From a virus, in IMG/VR virus record IMGVR_UViG_3300037485_001282, positions 32,001 through 96,000 of that record: 64,000 nucleotides of DNA. One strand, 5' to 3'. A program made the translations under genes and the position numbers. Below, piece by piece: positions 10,622 through 51,642 of the stretch. Position 1 is the first letter of the stretch; each line of letters begins with the position of its first letter. The notes below the pieces were generated by a model, which made no database searches, was not told the origin of the DNA, and saw only the letters and a program-made list of their open reading frames with translations.

Positions 10622-11334
10622 GCGTTTTCCTTTAGTATGTAATCTTTGAAATCTGTATATACTGGATTTAAAAAGTATTCTAGATTACAATCAATTGAAA
10701 TTCCACTATTTAATCTTAGTAATCTCCATTGAATCTGATCGTCACATATGTTATTTTCTTTATATTGATCTATTAAAATAGTCATTAAGTTTTTAATCTT
10801 TTCTTTTTTCCCAAAAAAGCACCCAGCATTTAAGTGAAAGAAATCTTTGTCTGGTAAAATCTGTTTTTCTTTATCGATAATATATTCCATATTCAGTTTT
10901 TTGAGTTTTTTAAGTTGATTTCCTTTTTCGGATTGAAAAATAATATCATCTTTGATATTTAAAAGTCTAGTTAAATCACCTTGGAGAAATACGTCATAAG
11001 AATCTACACATAATACAAACTCTTCGGCAATTTTATCGTAATTTTCAATAAAACCATGTATTTTTTCCATCCAGTTAAATTCAACGTTTGTTCTGGCGCA
11101 ATTATAATATTTAACTCTATTGTTTATACAAATTTGTTCCAAGACACCGCGTTTTCTTCTCCTTAAATCATTATTATAAGTTACTATTGCTATATTCTTA
11201 GGAACAGTAATTTTAAAGTCATTTAGTCTTTTTTCACAGAAATCCCATAGTCTCCAGTCCCATGATTTGGGTCCACCCGAAAAATGTATCGCTAATGGTT
11301 CCTTTATGGAATCTTTATGATTATATTTTAACAT
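10618..11334 (-). CDS. PLOD-type GT-A glycosyltransferase domain protein
   Basis: VLCVDSYDVF, IIFQSEK, HLNAGCFFG, DDQ, IDCN.EYF match the lysyl hydroxylase/glycosyltransferase GT domain pattern. Confidence 0.7.
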   Translation of the reverse strand: MLKYNHKDSIKEPLAIHFSGGPKSWDWRLWDFCEKRLNDFKITVPKNIAIVTYNNDLRRRKRGVLEQICINNRVKYYNCARTNVEFNWMEKIHGFIENYDKIAEEFVLCVDSYDVFLQGDLTRLLNIKDDIIFQSEKGNQLKKLKKLNMEYIIDKEKQILPDKDFFHLNAGCFFGKKEKIKNLMTILIDQYKENNICDDQIQWRLLRLNSGISIDCNLEYFLNPVYTDFKDYILKENA

Positions 11335-11336
11335 AA

Positions 11337-12053
11337 TTACACTCTTTCTATTCGTTCCTTAAGATACTTCAATTTACTCTTAACATCCTTCTTAGCACAA
11401 TGATGAATCAATATAGTATCTTTGCCTTCTTCTTTTTGATACTTAGGATAATAAATATACTTAGAATCATAAAGACCAATATCATCTATTCCCAAGTAAA
11501 TCATACTATTCAACGCACTCTGATCATTAAGTGAAAGCAGATCTCTATCTTTTTTTCTGGTATTGTAAAATGTCTTCCAGTTATCTAGAAAATCATAGTT
11601 ACTTTCATTAAACGAAAATACGCCAGAGCAAAATGGCTTTACCCTTTCTGGAATAGTCTCTTCGTAGTTATATAAAGAACCACCATACCATTTATAGTTT
11701 CTTTTATTTAATTCAATTGGAGTTAAGAAAATTAAAGGGTCTTCAGCAACTTCTAGTTCCTTAAATAACCTGTCTATCGACCTAACAGCAATAACATCAG
11801 TATCTAAATATAAGTACCTATCGTAACCAGAAGCAAATTCAAGGATCTTCGCTCTATACATACAAAGATCATATAAGTTGCTAGATGGTTCCTTAAAGAC
11901 AATAGTCTTAGCTCCTTCAAATTTATAATCAATGTCACTCAGAACAACAATGTCCCCACTATAACCAGTCTTCTTTAAACTGGATATAGTGAGGTCAGCA
12001 AATTCCTTGTAAATCTTATTACCAAATACAACTAGGTAAACTAAGGTGCTCAT
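11337..12053 (-). CDS. GT8-like glycosyltransferase
   Basis: YLYLDTDV, FCSGVF, NDQSALN, ILIHH motifs. Confidence 0.8.
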   Translation of the reverse strand: MSTLVYLVVFGNKIYKEFADLTISSLKKTGYSGDIVVLSDIDYKFEGAKTIVFKEPSSNLYDLCMYRAKILEFASGYDRYLYLDTDVIAVRSIDRLFKELEVAEDPLIFLTPIELNKRNYKWYGGSLYNYEETIPERVKPFCSGVFSFNESNYDFLDNWKTFYNTRKKDRDLLSLNDQSALNSMIYLGIDDIGLYDSKYIYYPKYQKEEGKDTILIHHCAKKDVKSKLKYLKERIERV

Positions 12054-12292
12054 TTTGCATCTTGGGTAATCGTAATCACCTCAACATTAGGAGCACTAAG
12101 CATCTCCTTCTGCTTAGATGCTTCTAGCTCCTTCTTTTGCTTCTCCTGCTCTGCCATTTGAGCAACAAAAGCCTCTACAGTTCCTATTGACTGATAAGCT
12201 AACTGACCCTCCTGAGAAGGTAAATTGTCGGCAATAGCAGCAAGTCCCTTACGGGCTAAAAAGATTAAATTTTGAAGATCCTGAAGTGTCAT
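12050..12292 (-). CDS. Hypothetical protein
   Basis: 80 aa, AAGGA RBS, upstream TGCTATAAT. Confidence 0.65.
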   Translation of the reverse strand: MTLQDLQNLIFLARKGLAAIADNLPSQEGQLAYQSIGTVEAFVAQMAEQEKQKKELEASKQKEMLSAPNVEVITITQDAK

Positions 12293-12330
12293 TTATAGTT
12301 CCTTTAAAGATAATTATAGCAACTTCTAGT

Positions 12331-14535
12331 TTATTTTATCTCACATCCACCACCAGAGCAACTAGCAGCAGCCAAAGTGTTCATATCAAATTTAAAATCT
12401 TCTTCCATAAACAAAGACCAGTCAACGTCTTGATATTCTCGCTTAAGATCTAACCATAGTTTCCAAAGAGAAACGTGCTTAAGTAAATGTGAGCATTTTC
12501 GCAAATCACCATCAACGTATCTAGCTGCAAATTGCTTAAACCGTCTAACCCAATCTTTTTTCTTTTCTTCTTTATTGAAATTTTCTACATCATCATAATA
12601 CTGTTTAAGATCCCCAGCATATTTTATTAATTTGCTTGCGTGTTGTTTGTCTGTGAATCCATTTTTGGCGGGTCTAATCGGTTCTTCTGGTTTATTTAAA
12701 TTTATAATCTGTTGCCCAATATCTAATGCACAGTCGCACGCTGCCCATAAGTTATCACTAAAAGCATCCAATCCATCAACTATAAGACCAGACGCAAAAA
12801 GAGATCCTTCTCCGTATTCAGCGATTAGTTCCTTTTCATTTAAAATATTAGAAAAAGGAGCTTGTGGATAATCTAAATCACCAGAGAACGGCAATAGTGA
12901 AATTCCACCGAACCATTTTTTATTATGATAAATAAACTTTTCAACTTCGTCCCATTCTTCATTTTTTACCGAAATGGTGTTGGATACATTATGACGCAAC
13001 CAAGGTTGAACGCTTCTTGTTGTTGTTCCGTATTCAACCCAGTTTTGTTGAGTTAACATAACTTTTTCTAATAACTCAATCGCGCCAACTTGATTCTTTA
13101 CAATCGCGCCATCTGGCACTTCACACAAGAAACTTATAACTTTATCGTTTCCCGATTTACTCCAAACAGATTTTTCAACCGCTTTAGGATTATGTACCTC
13201 AAAATATTGAAGAGGGGATTCCATAATATTCGCTTGAACGCGCCGCAAATATCTCCTTGAGAAAGAAGGGTGAATTCCATTGGAAACACCTAGGAGACAA
13301 GAAGATGTGCCCTCTGGCTTTATTGCATTTACTCTTGCTGCCGCATTTATTCCCAATAATTTTGCGATCCTTTCGTTGGTTTCTATTATAGTTTTGGCCC
13401 CATTCTGCTGGAAGATTGGATTAAGTGCTATAGTTGGGTTATCCATTATCCCAGTCATAGAACACCCGAGTAACGCCTCTCGTTTATTAATATCTTCAGT
13501 TACTTTTCCAAGATATGGAAATTTATTGTATGACGCTTGTATTGTTCCAACAATAGCCGATGCTTTACACGCAGAGTAAAAATCCTCCTCTGTTTTACAT
13601 TTCTTAACGTTAATGGTAGTTAAATTACAGAATTCCCATCCAGAATTTCCTTCTTCGTCGTAGCCATAAAGGCCAATTTCGCAGCAGTTATGTAGAATTA
13701 GGCCACTGGAGTCAAACGCATGAGCGCCATTTATGGTGCAGTCATAAACGTCTTTTTTTCCAACATATTCAATATTTTCTACTATTGCTGTTTTACTTGT
13801 GCGAAACACTGAATATTCTTCATAATGGGGGTCGTTTTCGGTTTCTTTCTTATACTCGAAATAAGCGTCTGACTTATAAAAAGAATGATCGTGTACCATT
13901 AAAAATTCACCGATAGTAATATGTTTTTGCTCTACCCATTCTGGCTTATTGTTTCGCAAAACAAGTAACTTATGGTTTGATGTTGTTTCGACCGATTTAC
14001 CACATGTGGTTGTGATCTTATACACATCTTTATTTCCAGTATAGAAGAATCCGCTCTCAGTTGATTTAAATTCTTCACCATTAACCAACGCAATGAATTG
14101 GTTTCCGATCAAATCATTAACAGTTTTTATACCAGATGCCGTTAAAATTTCGGTTTCGCCTGGAACACATGGGTTAAACAAGGCTCTGTCGTTATCGGTC
14201 CAAATAAATCCTGGTTCACCAAAATCTTTAGTCGATTTAAATAATTTAGAAAAATCATCTTTAGAAATCTCGCTTCTAACTAGTAACGCGGAGTTATTAG
14301 ATCTTCCTCGTTGGGGGTTTTTTATAAACCAATCTGCCGTTTTCGCTTTAGCCATTTCTTCATCATCTGGTGAAAATAAACATATTACTGCTGAATTATG
14401 TGAAATAGAAGTAAACCCATTAAGTTCATTTTTTGCATTAAAACAATGAACCTCATTTACTTCTATATCATATGTGTTTTCTTCCCCATAACTGGAAACA
14501 CATGTTACTCTTGAAAGTTTAAAGTTACTCTTCAT
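12331..14535 (-). CDS. nrdJ: Class II ribonucleotide reductase, C-terminal part (split-intein C half plus an internal mini-intein)
   Basis: Begins with a 47 aa IntC (YDIEV...SHN|S). RNR motifs RSNNSA, GEPG, NP[intein]CCEI, CNLT, KPEGTSS, HNVSNT, C-terminal CSGGGC. Confidence 0.9.
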   Translation of the reverse strand: MKSNFKLSRVTCVSSYGEENTYDIEVNEVHCFNAKNELNGFTSISHNSAVICLFSPDDEEMAKAKTADWFIKNPQRGRSNNSALLVRSEISKDDFSKLFKSTKDFGEPGFIWTDNDRALFNPCVPGETEILTASGIKTVNDLIGNQFIALVNGEEFKSTESGFFYTGNKDVYKITTTCGKSVETTSNHKLLVLRNNKPEWVEQKHITIGEFLMVHDHSFYKSDAYFEYKKETENDPHYEEYSVFRTSKTAIVENIEYVGKKDVYDCTINGAHAFDSSGLILHNCCEIGLYGYDEEGNSGWEFCNLTTINVKKCKTEEDFYSACKASAIVGTIQASYNKFPYLGKVTEDINKREALLGCSMTGIMDNPTIALNPIFQQNGAKTIIETNERIAKLLGINAAARVNAIKPEGTSSCLLGVSNGIHPSFSRRYLRRVQANIMESPLQYFEVHNPKAVEKSVWSKSGNDKVISFLCEVPDGAIVKNQVGAIELLEKVMLTQQNWVEYGTTTRSVQPWLRHNVSNTISVKNEEWDEVEKFIYHNKKWFGGISLLPFSGDLDYPQAPFSNILNEKELIAEYGEGSLFASGLIVDGLDAFSDNLWAACDCALDIGQQIINLNKPEEPIRPAKNGFTDKQHASKLIKYAGDLKQYYDDVENFNKEEKKKDWVRRFKQFAARYVDGDLRKCSHLLKHVSLWKLWLDLKREYQDVDWSLFMEEDFKFDMNTLAAASCSGGGCEIK
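13687..14169 (-). mobile_element. Contiguous mini-intein (161 aa) at the catalytic NP|C site of NrdJ
   Basis: NP|CVPGETEIL...TTSNHK (block B)...VYDCTI..AHAF...LHN|CCE; too short to hold an endonuclease. Confidence 0.9.
14395..14535 (-). mobile_element. Split intein C-fragment (NrdJ), 47 aa
   Basis: Blocks F/G: TYDIEVNEVHCF...ISHN followed by Ser+1. Confidence 0.88.
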
Positions 14536-44816: not shown

Positions 44817-44881
44817 GGTTATTCTCCTTGATGACCTAATTATATCATATTTTTTTCAATTCCAAATACTTTGTTTAAAAT

Positions 44882-44889
44882 TATAAATA
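44882..44889 (+). promoter_or_regulatory. T4-type late promoter
   Basis: Exact TATAAATA 22 nt upstream of the 44912 ATG; GGAG RBS. Confidence 0.72.
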
Positions 44890-44911
44890 CCATTATTAAC
44901 GGAGAAACAAA

Positions 44912-45601
44912 ATGACACAAGAACAAATTAATGAGAGTTTAGCCAATGATATACTTCAATACGAAGAACTTAAAGAAGGTATCTTCAGTAAAATGGGAGA
45001 AATAGGCGCTGGTATCGGTGGAATATTCAGTAACATAAAGAAAAACTTTAAAGATGGACGTAGAGATAAAGTTATAAACAACTTTAAAAATGAAATGACT
45101 AAGGCAATGCAAGCCGATGATTCGAAAGTAAAAAGCTCAATCGAAACATTAAACCAAGCCTTAAATAAAAGAACAGCCGATCTTGAAAAAGTTAAACAAA
45201 ATATTCTAAAAAAATCAGCAAATGATCCACAACTCCAACAAGCACTAAAAGCAGCAATGGACCAAAATACTCAAGATATTAAAAAATTCCAAAATTCTTT
45301 AGCAACTTTCCAAAAAGCAATTACTCCACCAGCACCACAAGCAACTAAAGCACCACAAACTGCTCCAACTCAAGCACCTAAAGCAAAACCAGCTCCTAAA
45401 AACTCTGCTAAAAAGAAACCCCAAGCACCTAAAGTTCCTCCAGTTGCTCCTACTCAACCCCCAGCCGCTCCAGCACCTAAAGCACCTAAAAAATCCACTA
45501 AAAAGAAACCTAAGCCACTCCCAGAAAATAAAAAGCAAATCCTAGAAAATAGTAAGTTGATGCTAGTTTCGGTAAATAAACTCTTAAAGGATCACAAATG
45601 A
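44912..45601 (+). CDS. Late protein with coiled coil and Pro/Ala/Lys-rich tail; putative head internal protein
   Basis: Late promoter, (I/L)xE motifs (INES, LKEG, LPEN, ILEN), histone-H1-like PAK region. Confidence 0.55.
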   Translation: MTQEQINESLANDILQYEELKEGIFSKMGEIGAGIGGIFSNIKKNFKDGRRDKVINNFKNEMTKAMQADDSKVKSSIETLNQALNKRTADLEKVKQNILKKSANDPQLQQALKAAMDQNTQDIKKFQNSLATFQKAITPPAPQATKAPQTAPTQAPKAKPAPKNSAKKKPQAPKVPPVAPTQPPAAPAPKAPKKSTKKKPKPLPENKKQILENSKLMLVSVNKLLKDHK

Positions 45602-46050
45602 ACCCAGAAGAAAAACAAAAGTTTCTTAAAGAATCTAAAAAGATCCTCAAAGCAACTTCTAAGTTAATCGAAAATAAATTTAAAGGAACTCAAAGTTCCG
45701 ATGAAGTTCCTCCTGGTAGAAAGTCACCTAAAGTTTATGGCGATTTCACTATAAATGATGCAATACAGATAATAACTCAAATCAGAAACAAACAAGGAAA
45801 CCCCAAGGCTATAGAGAAAATTTTATATAATATTATGGACTTCTCAGTAAACGGCAACGGTAAGGTTGAGGCGCAACTGCTTAGAACAGAACTAGTTAAT
45901 ACAATAACTGAGTTTAATGCTAATTATTCTTACGCAATTTCTAAATTAACCGAATATATCAAATCAGAGGAATCTTCGAGAGATCTTGATAGCCCAGTAA
46001 CAAAAACAGATAAACGAAGATTTAAAATACCGTCTGGGCCAAGTAAATAA
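45598..46050 (+). CDS. Hypothetical late protein
   Basis: Coupled to the upstream gene; FLKES/LIEN motifs. Confidence 0.6.
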   Translation: MNPEEKQKFLKESKKILKATSKLIENKFKGTQSSDEVPPGRKSPKVYGDFTINDAIQIITQIRNKQGNPKAIEKILYNIMDFSVNGNGKVEAQLLRTELVNTITEFNANYSYAISKLTEYIKSEESSRDLDSPVTKTDKRRFKIPSGPSK

Positions 46051-46094
46051 AATTCGGGTTATTCGAGCATATGTAATTTTATTTCAGTAGCTTA

Positions 46095-46133
46095 TATAAA
46101 TAATATTGACTTTTTTCAAAAACAGGATATAAT
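46095..46133 (+). promoter_or_regulatory. Tandem late (TATAAATA 46095-46102) and sigma70-type (TTGACT-N16-TATAAT 46106-46133) promoters of the tRNA operon
   Basis: Seen directly; the -10 box ends 7 nt before the leader ATG. Confidence 0.75.
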
Positions 46134-46140
46134 AGAAAAC

Positions 46141-46209
46141 ATGAACCAAGTACTATCATTATCATCGTCCAGTTATCTCAGTTCCTATCTCGGAACGGGG
46201 CGAGGGTAA
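46141..46209 (+). CDS. Putative attenuator leader peptide MNQVLSLSSSSYLSSYLGTGRG
   Basis: 22 codons; codons 5-17 are all Ser/Leu/Tyr, matching the downstream tRNAs. Confidence 0.75.
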   Translation: MNQVLSLSSSSYLSSYLGTGRG

Positions 46210-46235
46210 TATTGTAGTTTTCTACAGTAAACTCC

Positions 46236-46271
46236 AAAGCCCCGAATCGAAAGACTCGGGGCTTTTTCTTT
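46236..46271 (+). terminator. Intrinsic terminator (attenuator) upstream of the tRNA array
   Basis: AAAGCCCCGA-a-TC-GAAA-GA-c-TCGGGGCTTT followed by TTCTTT. Confidence 0.88.
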
Positions 46272-46297
46272 GACAAATATATAGGTTAAAATTATAT

Positions 46298-46379
46298 GGG
46301 GATGTGGCGTAATGCAGCCGCGCAAGTCTTAGGAACTTGTACCTTCCATGGTGTGTGGATTCAAGTTCCACCATCCCCA
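46298..46379 (+). tRNA. tRNA-Leu(UAG)
   Basis: GGGGATG/CATCCCC acceptor, CAAGT-CT TAG GA-ACTTG anticodon arm, long V arm, GTGGA-TTCAAGT-TCCAC T arm, A73; CCA not encoded. Confidence 0.92.
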
Positions 46380-46383
46380 CTAC

Positions 46384-46465
46384 GAGTATGTCCCATAGCG
46401 GCAATTGGGAGGCGCTGTAAACGCCTTGGATTTATCCTTCGAAGGTTCGATTCCTTCCATACTCA
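46384..46465 (+). tRNA. tRNA-Tyr(GUA)
   Basis: GAGTATG/CATACTC acceptor, AGGCG-CT GTA AA-CGCCT, V arm, GAAGG-TTCGATT-CCTTC, A73. Confidence 0.92.
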
Positions 46466-46470
46466 TTTTT

Positions 46471-46554
46471 GGATCGTTAAATCATCGGGGATGATCTTTG
46501 CTTGGAAAGCAAATGGAGGATAAAAACCTTGAGTTTCGACTACTCAGCGATCCG
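46471..46554 (+). tRNA. tRNA-Ser(GGA), 8/4 type
   Basis: GGATCGTT/AGCGATCC, D stem ATCATC/GATGAT, TTTGC-TT GGA AA-GCAAA, V arm, GAGT-TTCGACT-ACTC, G73. Confidence 0.85.
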
Positions 46555-46560
46555 TTATCT

Positions 46561-46641
46561 GGAAAACAAAGCAGTCAGGGATTGCCGTCGCCTCGAAAGC
46601 GAATGGACCTTCGGGTTGCGTTTCGAGTACGCTGTTTTCCG
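46561..46641 (+). tRNA. tRNA-Ser(CGA), 8/4 type
   Basis: GGAAAACA/TGTTTTCC, D stem GCAGTC/GATTGC, TCGC-CT CGA AA-GCGA, GACC-TTCG-GGTT V arm, GCGT-TTCGAGT-ACGC, G73. Confidence 0.87.
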
Positions 46642-46644
46642 TTT

Positions 46645-46728
46645 GGAATATCAACTCTACAAGGTAGAGCCTTCTTTGCTAAAGAAGTGGTGCCTAATAA
46701 GCATTTGGGGCAGTACCAAGATATTCCG
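46645..46728 (+). tRNA. tRNA-Ser(GCU), 8/4 type, atypical T loop
   Basis: GGAATATC/GATATTCC, D stem CTCTAC/GTAGAG, CTTCT-TT GCT AA-AGAAG, V arm, TTGG-GGCAGTA-CCAA, G73. Confidence 0.83.
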
Positions 46729-46733
46729 TATTT

Positions 46734-46820
46734 GGCAAGTTAACCAGTCAGGCGATTGGCGCTGTTTTGAAAGCAGAGGGTTCCCGAATAGGGAATGGGT
46801 TTCGATTACTCAGCTTGCCG
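46734..46820 (+). tRNA. tRNA-Ser(UGA), 8/4 type
   Basis: GGCAAGTT/AGCTTGCC, D stem CCAGTC/GATTGG, CTGT-TT TGA AA-GCAG, GTTCCC/GGGAAT V arm, GGGT-TTCGATT-ACTC, G73. Confidence 0.87.
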
Positions 46821-46826
46821 TTATTT

Positions 46827-47828
46827 TTAACCCCAATTAAAATGGGCTTCTATTTCACTTTCATTTAACTTAGGAACTTCCCAGTTAAGTAAGTTAAAGA
46901 ACTTTGAGAGTGGATTAAAGAAGGCTTTTTCGAATTGATGTTCTCTATCGACATATTCTTCAATATTCAATTCATTAATCCACTTTTCTTTATATGAGAT
47001 TACGTTACTATTCCAGTCTCTACCTGTTTTGGTGTGGATAAGTTTAATCTTATCGCCTTCATATATCAAATCATATTTAGTTCTTAAATCCTCGTTCTCT
47101 AATAGAACATCATTATAGAGAATACTTCCTCTAATGTGAATAGGGGTTCTGTGGAACTTTCCTTTCTCATTGAAACTATCTAGGTACTTTTTAAGATTAT
47201 TTGCTGTACTTGGAAAGGCAATATCGTCAATATCAGCAACTAAAAATTTGCTTCTAACATCTTTTAATTTACTTATAATCAACTCTCTATTAGTAGTTTT
47301 AAGCATCTCAAACAAGCAGTCTTTCATATGCTTCTTAGCTAATTTAGGAGTTGAGGATCTTACGAGTTCAATTCCAGTTGCTTTAAGTTTATCGACAGCC
47401 ATCTTAGATTCACCATCATAAACTACCCACATTATATACTTCTTTTTCTCTAGGAAAAAGGATCTTCTAGAAACTTTTTCAACTTTAAAGGAAATCTTAT
47501 TTTCCTTGCAGTTATAGCGACTTAAAGATAACGCATCCATCGAACGGTTAATAATATTCGATACAAAGGGAACTATTTCGTCGTTAATAAATTTAATGAC
47601 TGGTTCTATTTTTTCTGGGTCGGTATTATTCCGATCAGGTATATGAAGAGAATCCAGGATTTTACCTATATCGACATAAAGCGAATTATGTACTAAGATA
47701 CCATTAGCGAAAAAGGTATTTGGTGCGTCTTCCATACCTATGTCATAAACTTCTTGTTCGACTGTCCCGTCCGAAACAAGTTCGATTGATTCTATTTCAT
47801 CTATATAATAATTCATTTTATTCCTCAT
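46827..47828 (-). CDS. gp43: Family B DNA polymerase, C-terminal part with split-intein C half
   Basis: VYDIGM...FFANGILVHN|SLYVD, then KKKY, GIELVRSSTP, TPIHIRG. The real start may be the second Met (MNYY, 47816), which has a GAGGA RBS. Confidence 0.92.
   Translation of the reverse strand: MRNKMNYYIDEIESIELVSDGTVEQEVYDIGMEDAPNTFFANGILVHNSLYVDIGKILDSLHIPDRNNTDPEKIEPVIKFINDEIVPFVSNIINRSMDALSLSRYNCKENKISFKVEKVSRRSFFLEKKKYIMWVVYDGESKMAVDKLKATGIELVRSSTPKLAKKHMKDCLFEMLKTTNRELIISKLKDVRSKFLVADIDDIAFPSTANNLKKYLDSFNEKGKFHRTPIHIRGSILYNDVLLENEDLRTKYDLIYEGDKIKLIHTKTGRDWNSNVISYKEKWINELNIEEYVDREHQFEKAFFNPLSKFFNLLNWEVPKLNESEIEAHFNWG
47685..47828 (-). mobile_element. Split intein C-fragment (DNA polymerase), 44-48 aa
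   Basis: Blocks F/G ending in HN, Ser+1. Confidence 0.9.
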
Positions 47829-49467
47829 TCCAAATAAATTTTATGTGTCCGCAGTCCCATACTCTTCTATAGTTATTATTAATCATATTAGAAAATTCTG
47901 TTAACGTTTCATCATAAATTGGTAATATTTTTTTTAAATTCTCTTTATAACATTTAAATCTACTTACATATATTTCTTCATCTTTAACATAAAAATAGTT
48001 TGGAGAAGATAACCCACTATGTTTAAATCCAATATTTTCAAAATTTTTGCCATCAGATAATCTAAAATCGCACACAAATAGAACCTCTCTTGGGGTGAAT
48101 TTTTCTTTAAAATAATCAAACAATATTTTTTCGCTTTTGAAAATGCTTATGTTATTTAAATTACAATATCTTGTTATCTCCCACTGGTGTTTGGTGTTTG
48201 AGCAAATACCCATTACTGATATTATCGCGTTGTTATAAAATAACCCAATTTTTATTTTTGATAATTTTACTCCATTTAAATTATTATGGGTACAAAAATT
48301 ATTAAATTCTTTATCTGAAATTTCTTTAACTACACATTCGCTCGCGTCTATAATGTTGCTGATTTTATTTAATTTATTCTTTATTATCGATTTCCAAATC
48401 TCCCTCTTCACAACATTTTTCCACTCAAATTCGAACATATGCAATAATTCTATATTTTTTTCTTTACATAATATTGTTTTATTTGCATGATAATTTTTCT
48501 CTTTTTCAGTTTCTTCTTTATTGAACGAATGCCAATAATTACCATTGAATTCAATAGCCAGATTTTTATTTGGAACAAAAATATCAATTTCTTTCGGGGG
48601 TATAATATATCGCACATTTTCTACTATCGATTCATCGAGTTCCTTGATAAAATCACATACCTCTTTTTCTTGATGTGATCTAATTTGGCTGCAATATGGA
48701 CAACCATAGCCAGATTTATGATCATTTGGCGTTTGCCAAAATGACCCATGCTCTTTACATTTTATTTCTACTTTTTCTTTAGCTGATCGGTAAACGACAA
48801 AACTATAATCATAAAGATCGCCATGTGATTTTTTAAAATCAACTATAGTTTCTTCTTGTGTTTTAAATGATCTTATGCTATTAAATTCGTTAGCGCATTT
48901 AGGGCAGCCATGTCCTAATAAGTGAATAGATGGTAATTGAAAGAATACACCGTGCTTTTTGCAGTGTATTTCTAATTTTTTGTCTTCCGTAAAGTTATTT
49001 ACGTAAGAATATAAGTTATTGTGTTTTTTATTAAGTAACTCATCCCATTTCTCGAACGAATAACTCAGCGCCTTACTAATGTTTTCTCTTTTGCATATTG
49101 GACAACCTATTCCCCTAAAATGAGGAGCAGGGGCTTGCCAAAAAGAGCCATGCTTTTTACATATTATTTCTACTTTTTCCGAACAAGATACATATTTTAC
49201 TTTTGAGTAGTCATATTTGTATTTGTGTTTTTCGTTAGATTTTTCTATAAACATTTCGTTGGTGAATGTTCTTTTAAGGGCATATGATTCTCTTCTACAA
49301 ATTGGGCACCCTAGGGTTCTACTAATATCTGCGTTTCTTTTTTTAAATTTTATACTGTGTTTATTACAAAACAGTTCTATTATTTTCTTGTCGTGGTCTA
49401 AAATTTTAATTACACTCACATGCGGCAAATGTTTTTCCACTCTAATTTTTATCTGATCAATGTTCAT
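47818..49467 (-). CDS. Free-standing homing endonuclease (zinc-ribbon repeats plus Vsr-like nuclease) inside the fractured polymerase gene
   Basis: Four C.KH....GCP.C repeats with YDYS.V.Y; EIDIF...LAIEFNGNYWH; additional C-terminal domain. Confidence 0.82.
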   Translation of the reverse strand: MNIDQIKIRVEKHLPHVSVIKILDHDKKIIELFCNKHSIKFKKRNADISRTLGCPICRRESYALKRTFTNEMFIEKSNEKHKYKYDYSKVKYVSCSEKVEIICKKHGSFWQAPAPHFRGIGCPICKRENISKALSYSFEKWDELLNKKHNNLYSYVNNFTEDKKLEIHCKKHGVFFQLPSIHLLGHGCPKCANEFNSIRSFKTQEETIVDFKKSHGDLYDYSFVVYRSAKEKVEIKCKEHGSFWQTPNDHKSGYGCPYCSQIRSHQEKEVCDFIKELDESIVENVRYIIPPKEIDIFVPNKNLAIEFNGNYWHSFNKEETEKEKNYHANKTILCKEKNIELLHMFEFEWKNVVKREIWKSIIKNKLNKISNIIDASECVVKEISDKEFNNFCTHNNLNGVKLSKIKIGLFYNNAIISVMGICSNTKHQWEITRYCNLNNISIFKSEKILFDYFKEKFTPREVLFVCDFRLSDGKNFENIGFKHSGLSSPNYFYVKDEEIYVSRFKCYKENLKKILPIYDETLTEFSNMINNNYRRVWDCGHIKFIWNEE

Positions 49468-49485
49468 AAGGTATATCCTTAATCA

Positions 49486-49493
49486 TATTTATA
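49486..49493 (-). promoter_or_regulatory. T4-type late promoter for the polymerase-associated endonuclease
   Basis: Exact TATAAATA in the 39-nt gap; AAGGA RBS downstream. Confidence 0.7.
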
Positions 49494-49506
49494 TAAATTT
49501 TAACAT

Positions 49507-51642
49507 TTATATGACTATAATTTTATCTCCAATTTTTAGGTTATGTGATTCTTTGTTTACCATGTTACTATTGGCGTCAATAGTAATTAACGGATGATCA
49601 GATGTAACTGTAATTGTTTTTCCTGATTTCGTTTTTATCTTATATAATTTCTTTTTTGTCAGATGCTTTTCTATATATTTGACTTTGCCAGAAATTACAT
49701 TTGATATGGTCGAATCAAACATAGGTAAAAGTAAGTTATTAGGGAAAACGAATTCTCTTCCATCATAATTTTTCTTGAAATTGATTGGTTCTTCTGTTTT
49801 TAATTCGGAAAAAATATCTTCTATTGCTATGTTTCTATTTTTACCTAAGTCATTGATAACCATGGACTTAGCCACGGAATCGGTATCTGCGTATATACAA
49901 ACATCATTAACGTTAATTGCGTTGTGTCTTTTCGCTAATTCCGTATCTTTAAATTTAGTTAAAAAATAGTTCTGAACCGTATCATTTACTGTTTTCGTTA
50001 TAGATTGTCCAGTTAAAGTCACCGCCATAGCATTATCTAGGTCATAAAATCTTGAATAAGGTGTCGATAAAAACCCATAAACAGAGTTCAAAAGCAGTTT
50101 GTAGTTGATTTGACGAGCATCGTGGGCGCTATATTCTGCTTTATTATTGTTTCTTTCTGCTTCTAACATTAACTCTTTATAATATTTTCTTTTATCAAAC
50201 CATTCAGAAATAAACGAAGGAACAATACCTTTAACATCTTGGCGATAGATAGCCCCATTGCCAGCCAAGCAGAAATTCTTTGCTTTAATTAACTTTGCTA
50301 GTTCCCTTATAGAAGTTTCTATGCCACTAAAAGTTACTAAATAGTCATCTATATCTTTACCAGCGATTAACTTACGTAAATCTGGAACATATTGACCATC
50401 GACTCTTCCTATTTTAGTTTCTGGGCTAATGTTCCAACCCATCATAATAGAAGGATACAATGAAGTAGCATCGAAAGATACCGTCCATTCATGTAGTCCC
50501 TTTATAGGATCTTTAACGTAACCACCTGGAAACTTTTTAGGTTCTATGTCTCGTTTCACATCTGGAAGAACAATATTTTTCTTTGATAGTTCCGATAAGA
50601 AGGCACCATCAAGGACTCTAACAGTTTTCTGATAGAACTCGAAAGGAACTCGGCAACCATAGCAGAAACTGAAGAGAATATTTAGGAACTTCTTTTTTGC
50701 TTCTAGTTTCTTTAGGAGTCTAACGTCATGGACATTATACTCTACATATTTCTGCCAGTCGTTATTATAGAGATCAACTAGAGTTCCTGTGTATTCTAGT
50801 TTACGTTCCCCTAGTTCCTCTTCAGCAATAGAATCTAATTTCCAGCTTGGTCTAGCGGAAAAGGTATATGTTTTAAATACTTCTAACATATCAATACAAG
50901 AGATGCCAGCAATTGAATAAGTTTTCTTAATTTTTCCATTTTTCAAAGTAGTTTCTATTTCTTTAACTACTCCAATGGGACTTAAGTCACTTGCAGCGTC
51001 TTCGTGGAAGATTTTGTTAATTCTATTTACTATGTAGGGAATATCGAAAAAGTTACTATTCCAGCCACTAAGGAAATCTGGGTGACTGTTTCTAACAAAG
51101 GTCATGAATTGGTTTAGTAATTCATTTTCATTTGATATGATAGTTTTTTCGTATTTCTCGTTTGCTTCATCTAGGAAACTTGTATTAAAGTCTCTTTCAG
51201 CAAATATAAAGTATTTTTGCTGTTTAGTTGACCAAACAGTAATAATAGTTATTGGGAAGTTAGCATCTTCTGGTTTAGGGAATCCTTTTTCAGAATGCAC
51301 CTCAATATCCAATAACCATATATCGAAGTCAGGAATGGTTAGTTCCTGACCTAGATAGTGGCTAACTATAAACTTAGTTTCTAGTGGAATGTCTGATTCA
51401 AACAGTTCCATTCCACTTGCTTTAAGTCTTTCGATTTTCTTTTTATATGCGTAGATGGTATCTGTTTCTATTTTTCTTGCTGGATCACCGAAAATAGTTT
51501 TATATTCTGGATTCTTTAAGAGTTTATCTTTCAAGAAAAAGAATAGAGGAGCGGGAAGACGCTTATGAACTTTATGTCCATCTTCATATTCCCACAGATT
51601 TATTTCTGACTTTCGGTAATCAACAAAAATATTAGAATACAT
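49507..51642 (-). CDS. gp43: Family B DNA polymerase, N-terminal part (exonuclease, motifs A/B) ending in a split-intein N half
   Basis: LDIE, GWN..FFDIPY, YN..DV, FDATSLYPS, K...NS.YG, YADTD|S-intein. Confidence 0.95.
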   Translation of the reverse strand: MYSNIFVDYRKSEINLWEYEDGHKVHKRLPAPLFFFLKDKLLKNPEYKTIFGDPARKIETDTIYAYKKKIERLKASGMELFESDIPLETKFIVSHYLGQELTIPDFDIWLLDIEVHSEKGFPKPEDANFPITIITVWSTKQQKYFIFAERDFNTSFLDEANEKYEKTIISNENELLNQFMTFVRNSHPDFLSGWNSNFFDIPYIVNRINKIFHEDAASDLSPIGVVKEIETTLKNGKIKKTYSIAGISCIDMLEVFKTYTFSARPSWKLDSIAEEELGERKLEYTGTLVDLYNNDWQKYVEYNVHDVRLLKKLEAKKKFLNILFSFCYGCRVPFEFYQKTVRVLDGAFLSELSKKNIVLPDVKRDIEPKKFPGGYVKDPIKGLHEWTVSFDATSLYPSIMMGWNISPETKIGRVDGQYVPDLRKLIAGKDIDDYLVTFSGIETSIRELAKLIKAKNFCLAGNGAIYRQDVKGIVPSFISEWFDKRKYYKELMLEAERNNNKAEYSAHDARQINYKLLLNSVYGFLSTPYSRFYDLDNAMAVTLTGQSITKTVNDTVQNYFLTKFKDTELAKRHNAINVNDVCIYADTDSVAKSMVINDLGKNRNIAIEDIFSELKTEEPINFKKNYDGREFVFPNNLLLPMFDSTISNVISGKVKYIEKHLTKKKLYKIKTKSGKTITVTSDHPLITIDANSNMVNKESHNLKIGDKIIVI
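49510..49878 (-). mobile_element. Split intein N-fragment (DNA polymerase), 123 aa, Ser1
   Basis: SVAKSMVI..IEDIF..LYKIKT.SGK.ITVTSDH..LKIGD. Confidence 0.9.

Follow-up and report, generated by a model that had tools for sequence, protein, structure and literature searches.

The stretch analysed here, which we call the window, is 64,000 nucleotides long and covers bases 32001-96000 of the linear IMG/VR record IMGVR_UViG_3300037485_001282, a 143.7-kb record from an uncultured phage. Between 46095 and 46820 of the window, on the plus strand, there is a promoter, a very short open reading frame (ORF), a terminator and an array of tRNA genes. The ORF and the terminator together form what we call the leader. 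The features are as follows, in window coordinates, with the alternative RNA pairings as predicted by folding.

46095..46102, plus strand: T4-type late-promoter motif TATAAATA, a possible second promoter and possibly a chance match
46106..46133, plus strand: sigma-70-type early promoter TTGACT-16-TATAAT, matching at 11/12 positions
46141..46209, plus strand: 22-codon leader ORF with no Shine-Dalgarno sequence, leaderless if the transcript starts at A46141
46153..46191, plus strand: control codons, 13 consecutive Leu/Ser/Tyr codons (ORF codons 5-17)
46158..46170, plus strand: region 1, the 5' arm of the 1:2 helix, within the control codons
46196..46210, plus strand: region 2, whose partner is region 1 or the terminator 5' arm; it carries CGGGGC and ends at the ORF stop codon
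46210..46229, plus strand: hairpin B, enclosed by the 2:3 antiterminator, -7.3 kcal/mol alone
46234..46249, plus strand: region 3, the terminator 5' arm, alternatively paired with region 2
46253..46271, plus strand: region 4, the terminator 3' arm, and the U tract
46298..46380, plus strand: tRNA-Leu(UAG), called by ARAGORN and Rfam
46384..46465, plus strand: tRNA-Tyr(GUA), class II, called by ARAGORN and Rfam
46470..46555, plus strand: tRNA-Ser(GGA), called by ARAGORN
46560..46642, plus strand: tRNA-Ser(CGA), called by ARAGORN
46646..46730, plus strand: tRNA-like element with a GCU anticodon loop (putative Ser-GCU), called by no program
46734..46820, plus strand: tRNA-Ser(UGA) with an 8-bp acceptor stem and a 4-bp T stem, called by ARAGORN

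The array holds the only tRNA genes of the record, and the first of them begins 27 nt past the terminator. All of its members are class II, with long variable arms. A first-pass annotation had listed six tRNAs here. ARAGORN calls five of them (Leu-UAG, Tyr-GUA, Ser-GGA, Ser-CGA and Ser-UGA) and leaves the Ser-GCU uncalled even with relaxed thresholds. In the predicted fold of this putative gene the acceptor stem has 8 bp, the D stem has 6 bp and the anticodon loop carries GCU, but the T loop is non-canonical. Rfam calls the Leu and Tyr tRNAs only, and misses the serine tRNAs at E up to 1. The serine tRNAs (window 46470-46820) have 8-bp acceptor stems, 4-bp T stems and long D stems. Such 8/4 serine tRNAs are known from some phages (Mukai et al., PMC5389517).

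The codons of the leader ORF are what make the locus unusual. Codons 5-17 read CTA TCA TTA TCA TCG TCC AGT TAT CTC AGT TCC TAT CTC, exactly as first reported, and all 13 encode Leu, Ser or Tyr, the amino acids of the array. Across all six frames of the 143.7-kb record no Leu/Ser/Tyr run is longer; the next-longest is 9 once two distant Ser-rich genes are set aside. A run of 13 was reached in none of 20,000 dinucleotide shuffles, whether the 95-nt leader was shuffled or just its biased 39-nt core. With Leu, Ser and Tyr together at 26.5% of six-frame codons, a run of this length has a probability of about 3e-8 per position. The figure of about 3e-9 that was offered originally is too small. With the same background, and corrected for the positions in the 320 nt ahead of the array, the run has p ~1e-5. 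Composition alone fails to explain it because the other two reading frames of the leader are not Leu/Ser/Tyr. Nor would a mere pyrimidine tract account for the two AGT codons. The amino acid set was not chosen post hoc, since the only tRNAs in the record define it. At the amino-acid level the match between leader and array is strong.

In the terminator (46236-46271), a 12-bp stem interrupted by a single A.C mismatch is capped with a GAAA loop (46236-46265) and leads into the U tract. The first-pass annotation called it strong, and the RNAfold energy of -19.3 kcal/mol agrees. A simple terminator scan missed this hairpin owing to the A.C mismatch, yet by strength it ranks in the top five of the terminator-like hairpins of this genome. 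It differs from the others in its position, being the only strong one that is not near the end of a gene. The intrinsic terminators of this phage are located 50-60 nt past gene ends, and this holds for most of the other strong ones, whereas this one stands 213 nt past the end of a gene.

The leader RNA has a second set of possible pairings. Region 1 can form a helix with region 2 (46158-46170 with 46198-46210; -16.1 kcal/mol including the inner hairpin). When the control codons are blocked, as they would be by a stalled ribosome, 46196-46206 is predicted to pair instead with 46234-46244 around hairpin B, and this 2:3 structure together with hairpin B has an energy of -24.1 kcal/mol. In the minimum free energy (MFE) fold of the full-length leader, the 1:2 helix, hairpin B and the terminator (3:4) form together at -41.9 kcal/mol (z = -4.8). 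The word CGGGGC occurs 4 times on the plus strand of the 143.7 kb, and two of these copies are here, 61 nt apart at 46196 and 46257. Region 2 thus duplicates the CGGGGC word of the terminator 3' arm. Adding the terminator 5' arm to 46185-46235 gains -11.2 kcal/mol, a value equalled by 14 of 600 shuffles. Statistical support for mutually exclusive 1:2, 2:3 and 3:4 pairings as modelled is moderate. The stop codon of the ORF, 46207-46209, lies inside region 2.

The promoter ahead of the ORF was reported correctly, as was the extent of the ORF itself, which is the sole ATG-to-stop ORF in the leader. Exactly this early-promoter consensus, TTGACT-16-TATAAT, is found at 5 sites genome-wide. Here the leader ATG begins 8 nt past the -10 hexamer, with a C at the predicted -1 and an A at the predicted +1, and the first 19 nt of the leader RNA are unpaired in the MFE fold. 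We infer from this spacing and the unpaired 5' end that the transcript could be a leaderless mRNA. The late motif TATAAATA is harder to judge. The genome has 33 copies of it, 24 of which are less than 60 nt upstream of a gene start, and the phage seems to use T4-type late promoters. The motif is also seen 15-30 nt ahead of many gene starts, for instance at window 44882, 49493 and 55005. Base composition alone predicts about 44 copies against the 33 observed, so the lone intergenic copy at 46095-46102 is weak evidence for a second promoter. Transcription of the tRNAs from a promoter downstream of the terminator had been named as an outcome that would undo the proposal of attenuation. The promoter scan found no acceptable promoter between the terminator and tRNA-Leu, so the tRNAs appear to depend on read-through.

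We argue, with moderate confidence, that this arrangement is best explained by ribosome-mediated transcription attenuation through a leader peptide, which would gate the class II tRNA array. Transcription from the early promoter would begin at the A of the ATG or right beside it, and the transcript would be translated as a leaderless mRNA. With an ample supply of Leu-, Ser- and Tyr-tRNAs, the ribosome would reach the stop codon at 46207-46209 and mask region 2. If no ribosome has loaded, region 1 would pair with region 2. In either case the 3:4 terminator would form and transcription would end 27 nt before tRNA-Leu. A stall within the first nine or so control codons would have the opposite outcome. 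It would mask region 1 and leave region 2 free to pair with the terminator 5' arm, with hairpin B stacked inside, and the polymerase would then enter the six tRNA genes. The new tRNAs would relieve the stall, which makes this a supply-and-demand feedback. The tRNAs would then probably be made mainly when Leu, Ser and Tyr codons are read slowly.

It is worth comparing this locus with the attenuators of enterobacteria. The thr (Thr/Ile), ilvGMEDA (Ile/Val/Leu) and trpL attenuators share with it a promoter-proximal mini-ORF, and in thr and ilvGMEDA the run of regulatory codons likewise specifies more than one amino acid. The 1:2 / 2:3 / 3:4 topology is the same, as is a stop codon at region 2 (as in trpL) and an intrinsic terminator about 60 nt past the stop codon. 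Unlike these systems, the locus is phage-borne, it would regulate tRNAs rather than biosynthetic enzymes, it lacks a Shine-Dalgarno sequence and would presumably start leaderless, and there is no sequence relationship. The pheST attenuator of E. coli, with its pheM leader, senses one aminoacyl-tRNA and regulates the component of translation that makes that aminoacyl-tRNA. Its output is a synthetase and it concerns a single amino acid, whereas the output here would be tRNA genes. T-box riboswitches also report tRNA charging through a terminator and an antiterminator, as the proposed switch would. They differ in that they read the tRNA directly, by a specifier codon and the T-box bulge, without translation. 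No T-box matches the leader in Rfam at E up to 10. In full-text searches of the literature we found no account of tRNA genes controlled by a leader-peptide attenuator.

The first-pass annotation suggested testing whether the codon content of leaders tracks the array anticodons in related jumbo phages. We surveyed 80 IMG/VR loci that share an 18-nt tRNA T-arm motif and were picked regardless of their leaders. They contain 249 regions upstream of tRNA blocks, which were scored against permuted amino-acid sets. There is no general trend: residues cognate to the block are not enriched overall in the 249 regions over the permuted sets. In seven marine T4-like genomes (G005, G013, G017, G018, G019, G023 and G025) no upstream ORF has more than 40% cognate residues. 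The top matches of the survey, though, all belong to one unrelated uncultured lineage (L131, L149, L158, L179, L180 and L188), in which two leaders are each matched in amino-acid composition to their own tRNA block.

The first of these leaders precedes a Gln-Lys-Asn-Leu-Trp block and consists of a promoter, an AAGGA site, a 39-codon ORF and a terminator. In it 12-14 residues of a 15-residue stretch are Asn, Lys, Gln, Leu or Trp. The second precedes a Glu-Phe-Tyr-Glu-Ser-Ser block, has 13-14 of 14 residues that are Glu, Phe, Tyr or Ser, and is followed by a terminator. Folded as a shortened sequence it gives a 1:2 / 2:3 / 3:4 switch in which region 2 repeats the terminator 3' arm. In L180 many positions of this second leader have changed, with non-cognate residues becoming cognate, and regions 2-4 are conserved. 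In L131 the two units lie at 11265-11520 and 12180-12445. A 73-residue HTH-like gene (L131:12472-12693) is found between the terminator of the second leader and its tRNA block, so that switch would also control a putative regulator. These leaders resemble the present one in having a promoter, a mini-ORF enriched in the amino acids of the block, and a terminator. They differ in being non-homologous, 39-46 codons long, provided with clear AAGGA sites and present twice per genome, and in that one of them also precedes a small HTH gene. Two differently matched leaders per genome are hard to ascribe to chance. The type of element exists, though it is rare, and its presence in a second, unrelated lineage suggests a recurrent design rather than a one-off.

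The Caulobacter phages phiCbK (L106:1080-1180) and CcrColossus (L108:1455-1555) have a conserved 20-21-codon ORF ahead of tRNA-Glu/Asp, flanked by a TTGAC-type promoter-like site and a terminator-like hairpin. Only 3 of its 19 residues are Glu or Asp, and a simple block-based score does not confirm that its codons match the block.

Several points weigh against attenuation at this locus. The most serious is initiation. The leader ORF has no Shine-Dalgarno sequence, compared with an AAGGA-type site at 74% of the phage's genes. The 4 other TTGACT-16-TATAAT sites all lead into a 5' untranslated region bearing AAGGA, with the start codon 19-33 nt past the -10 element. Without a Shine-Dalgarno sequence a leaderless start at the predicted +1 of the promoter is required, and this form of initiation is assumed here. 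The anatomy of an attenuator stands, with an ORF, an in-frame codon run, a 2:3 alternative to the terminator and no acceptable promoter past the terminator; translation of the leader ORF is an assumption. The folding energies raise another difficulty. Without region 4 the antiterminator fold is itself the ribosome-free MFE structure, at -28.3 kcal/mol versus about -23.4 for the 1:2 helix with hairpin B. The 'off' default must then be kinetic, because the antiterminator is slightly favoured before region 4 has been transcribed. A ribosome stalled at one of the final two or three control codons would mask region 2 rather than free it.

The match between leader and array has its own limit. The first-pass annotation paired each anticodon with a leader codon, and this part of its proposal is not supported. 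Coverage of all six anticodon classes by 13 Leu/Ser/Tyr codons is not significant (p = 0.087), and the 10 of 13 codons that are directly readable are the typical, expected number. Neither TTA nor the two CTC codons are served by the array. The match is not significant at the isoacceptor level, and sensing of individual isoacceptors would be speculation. A perfect -35 hexamer, TTGACA, is also present at 46270-46275, directly past the U tract. We rejected a promoter using it since it has no usable -10 and its start would fall within tRNA-Leu.

Outside the one lineage none of the 249 surveyed regions has a significant match, which makes the design rare. Searching 46000-46900 against GenBank phages with blastn gave no homologue. 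The C-terminal part of the polymerase and a 150-aa neighbour were used to search IMG/VR and JGI metagenomes, and no relative carrying the locus was found. An exact 3' segment of tRNA-Tyr found no relative in IMG/VR, a DNA search of the five nearest records did not find the locus, and an index of look-alike stretches gave no match either. No homologue of the leader, the tRNAs or the neighbouring ORFans thus turned up in IMG/VR, JGI metagenomes or GenBank phages, which leaves neither conservation nor covariation to draw on.

Given these points, one must ask whether the leader is translated at all. It could be an untranslated small RNA (sRNA) or plain leader, a stable RNA of about 125 nt, with the tRNAs made by constitutive leaky read-through and the codon run having no role in decoding. 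The missing Shine-Dalgarno sequence fits this, and so does the layout of a C/U-rich 5' part, two hairpins and a terminator, which is like that of many base-pairing sRNAs. The tract even contains UUCC, complementary to the AAGGA ribosome-binding sites of the phage. No Rfam family reaches its gathering score in the leader. The Phe, His and Thr leaders score 26.4, 20.0 and 18.2 bits against gathering scores of 55, 49 and 55, and Yfr10 scores 28.4 bits against a threshold of 43. We read all of these as likeness to the terminator, in the case of the Phe, His and Thr leaders to terminator and layout only, and the sub-threshold matches are mostly to terminator-bearing sRNAs. However, an untranslated RNA leaves it unexplained why the only ATG-to-stop frame reads Leu/Ser/Tyr, why this codon set is identical to the amino acids of the array, and why region 2 duplicates a terminator arm. 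The parallel leaders in the other lineage have clear ribosome-binding sites. We consider an untranslated RNA unlikely, though it is the alternative to be taken most seriously. Much the same objection applies if something other than a ribosome flips these structures, such as a phage or host RNA-binding protein on the C/U-rich tract or processive antitermination. The alternative structures do exist independently of translation, and protein-mediated attenuators are a known class that includes PyrR, TRAP and the L10 leader. A protein-binding tract, however, gives no reason for Leu/Ser/Tyr in one specific frame. The leader has no boxA-like site: the rRNA boxA pattern gives a single match, at 46264-46276, with 3 mismatches and overlapping the U tract, and chance would predict more such matches than are seen; the lack of any Rfam family at gathering score counts against such a factor too. 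We regard it as quite improbable.

It could also be that the parts are unrelated neighbours. The hairpin would then serve to end transcription of the genes upstream of it (44912-46050), and a non-canonical promoter using TTGACA at 46270-46275 would make the tRNAs. The perfect -35 hexamer right after the U tract speaks for this, and two other terminators in the genome immediately precede early promoters. But neither hexamer that might act as a -10 at 16-17 nt, TTATAT or TATATG, is usable, and such a promoter would start inside the tRNA it is supposed to express. A consensus promoter stands between the gene end and the hairpin, and the distance of 213 nt does not agree with the 50-60 nt of the other strong terminators. 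This makes unrelated neighbours very improbable.

The phage is a distant T4-like one, with an estimated record completeness of about 79% and a G+C content of 33%. Among its genes are those for UvsX, a DnaB-type helicase, gp32 and a family B polymerase with about 33% identity to cyanomyovirus polymerases. The leader and the array belong to a 2-kb block (44817-46826) that has the opposite orientation to its surroundings and sits between uvsX and the polymerase gene. The remainder of the block is two ORFans of 229 aa and 150 aa, for which no PHROG or Pfam family and no usable Atlas match was found. In the closest genomes the C-terminal part of the polymerase is 55-62% identical. In L003, L004 and L006, those among them whose flank could be compared, the polymerase gene is followed on its own strand by uvsX, and no tRNAs separate the two. 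By this comparison of gene order the block is an accessory insertion specific to the phage analysed here. The family B DNA polymerase itself (window 46827-51642) is in two parts of 711 aa and 333 aa, separated by an HNH/homing-endonuclease gene at 47818-49467. The two parts are contiguous in L003, L005/L006, L056 and L057.

Why a phage would need a switch for these particular tRNAs can be approached from demand or from defence. Two adjacent large genes at genome positions 136784-141355, outside the window, encode proteins that are 26.7% and 17.1% serine. Both look late, with long poly-Ser tracts that use all six Ser codons. They are a possible source of high demand for serine tRNAs, and serine demand is as simple a rationale for the switch as defence is.

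The defence argument starts from tRNA nucleases. The tRNA-Tyr of T5 counters the retron-Eco7 PtuAB, amplification of tRNA-Tyr in T6 counters Septu, and PtuAB cleaves the variable loop of a class II tRNA (PMC13096335, PMC10264068, PMC11464382). Bacterial Schlafen nucleases cut both host and phage tRNAs (PMC13056530). Like these counter-defence tRNAs, the array is phage-encoded, it would be a case where dosage matters, and it is class II only. The T5 and T6 cases differ in relying on constitutive early expression or gene amplification rather than on a sensing switch. One could propose by analogy that a variable-arm nuclease depletes class II tRNAs, the leader ribosome stalls, and replacement tRNAs are transcribed, and in that event the 8/4 architecture of the array may escape cleavage. 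Nothing in the sequence ties the switch to anticodon or variable-arm nucleases, and the cited defence studies do not tie it to defence. A counter-defence role is speculation, and we think it improbable.

The purpose and control of phage tRNA genes have been debated for about fifty years, with codon compensation on one side and the replacement of tRNAs destroyed by defence systems on the other. If leader-peptide attenuation is the true explanation for this locus, the phage would set its tRNA supply by demand, gauging decoding speed at the very codon families that its array serves. Attenuation, known to textbooks from amino-acid genes, would then apply to tRNA genes too, and some 170 nt of sequence could serve as a simple, portable reporter of how available class II tRNAs are in infected cells.

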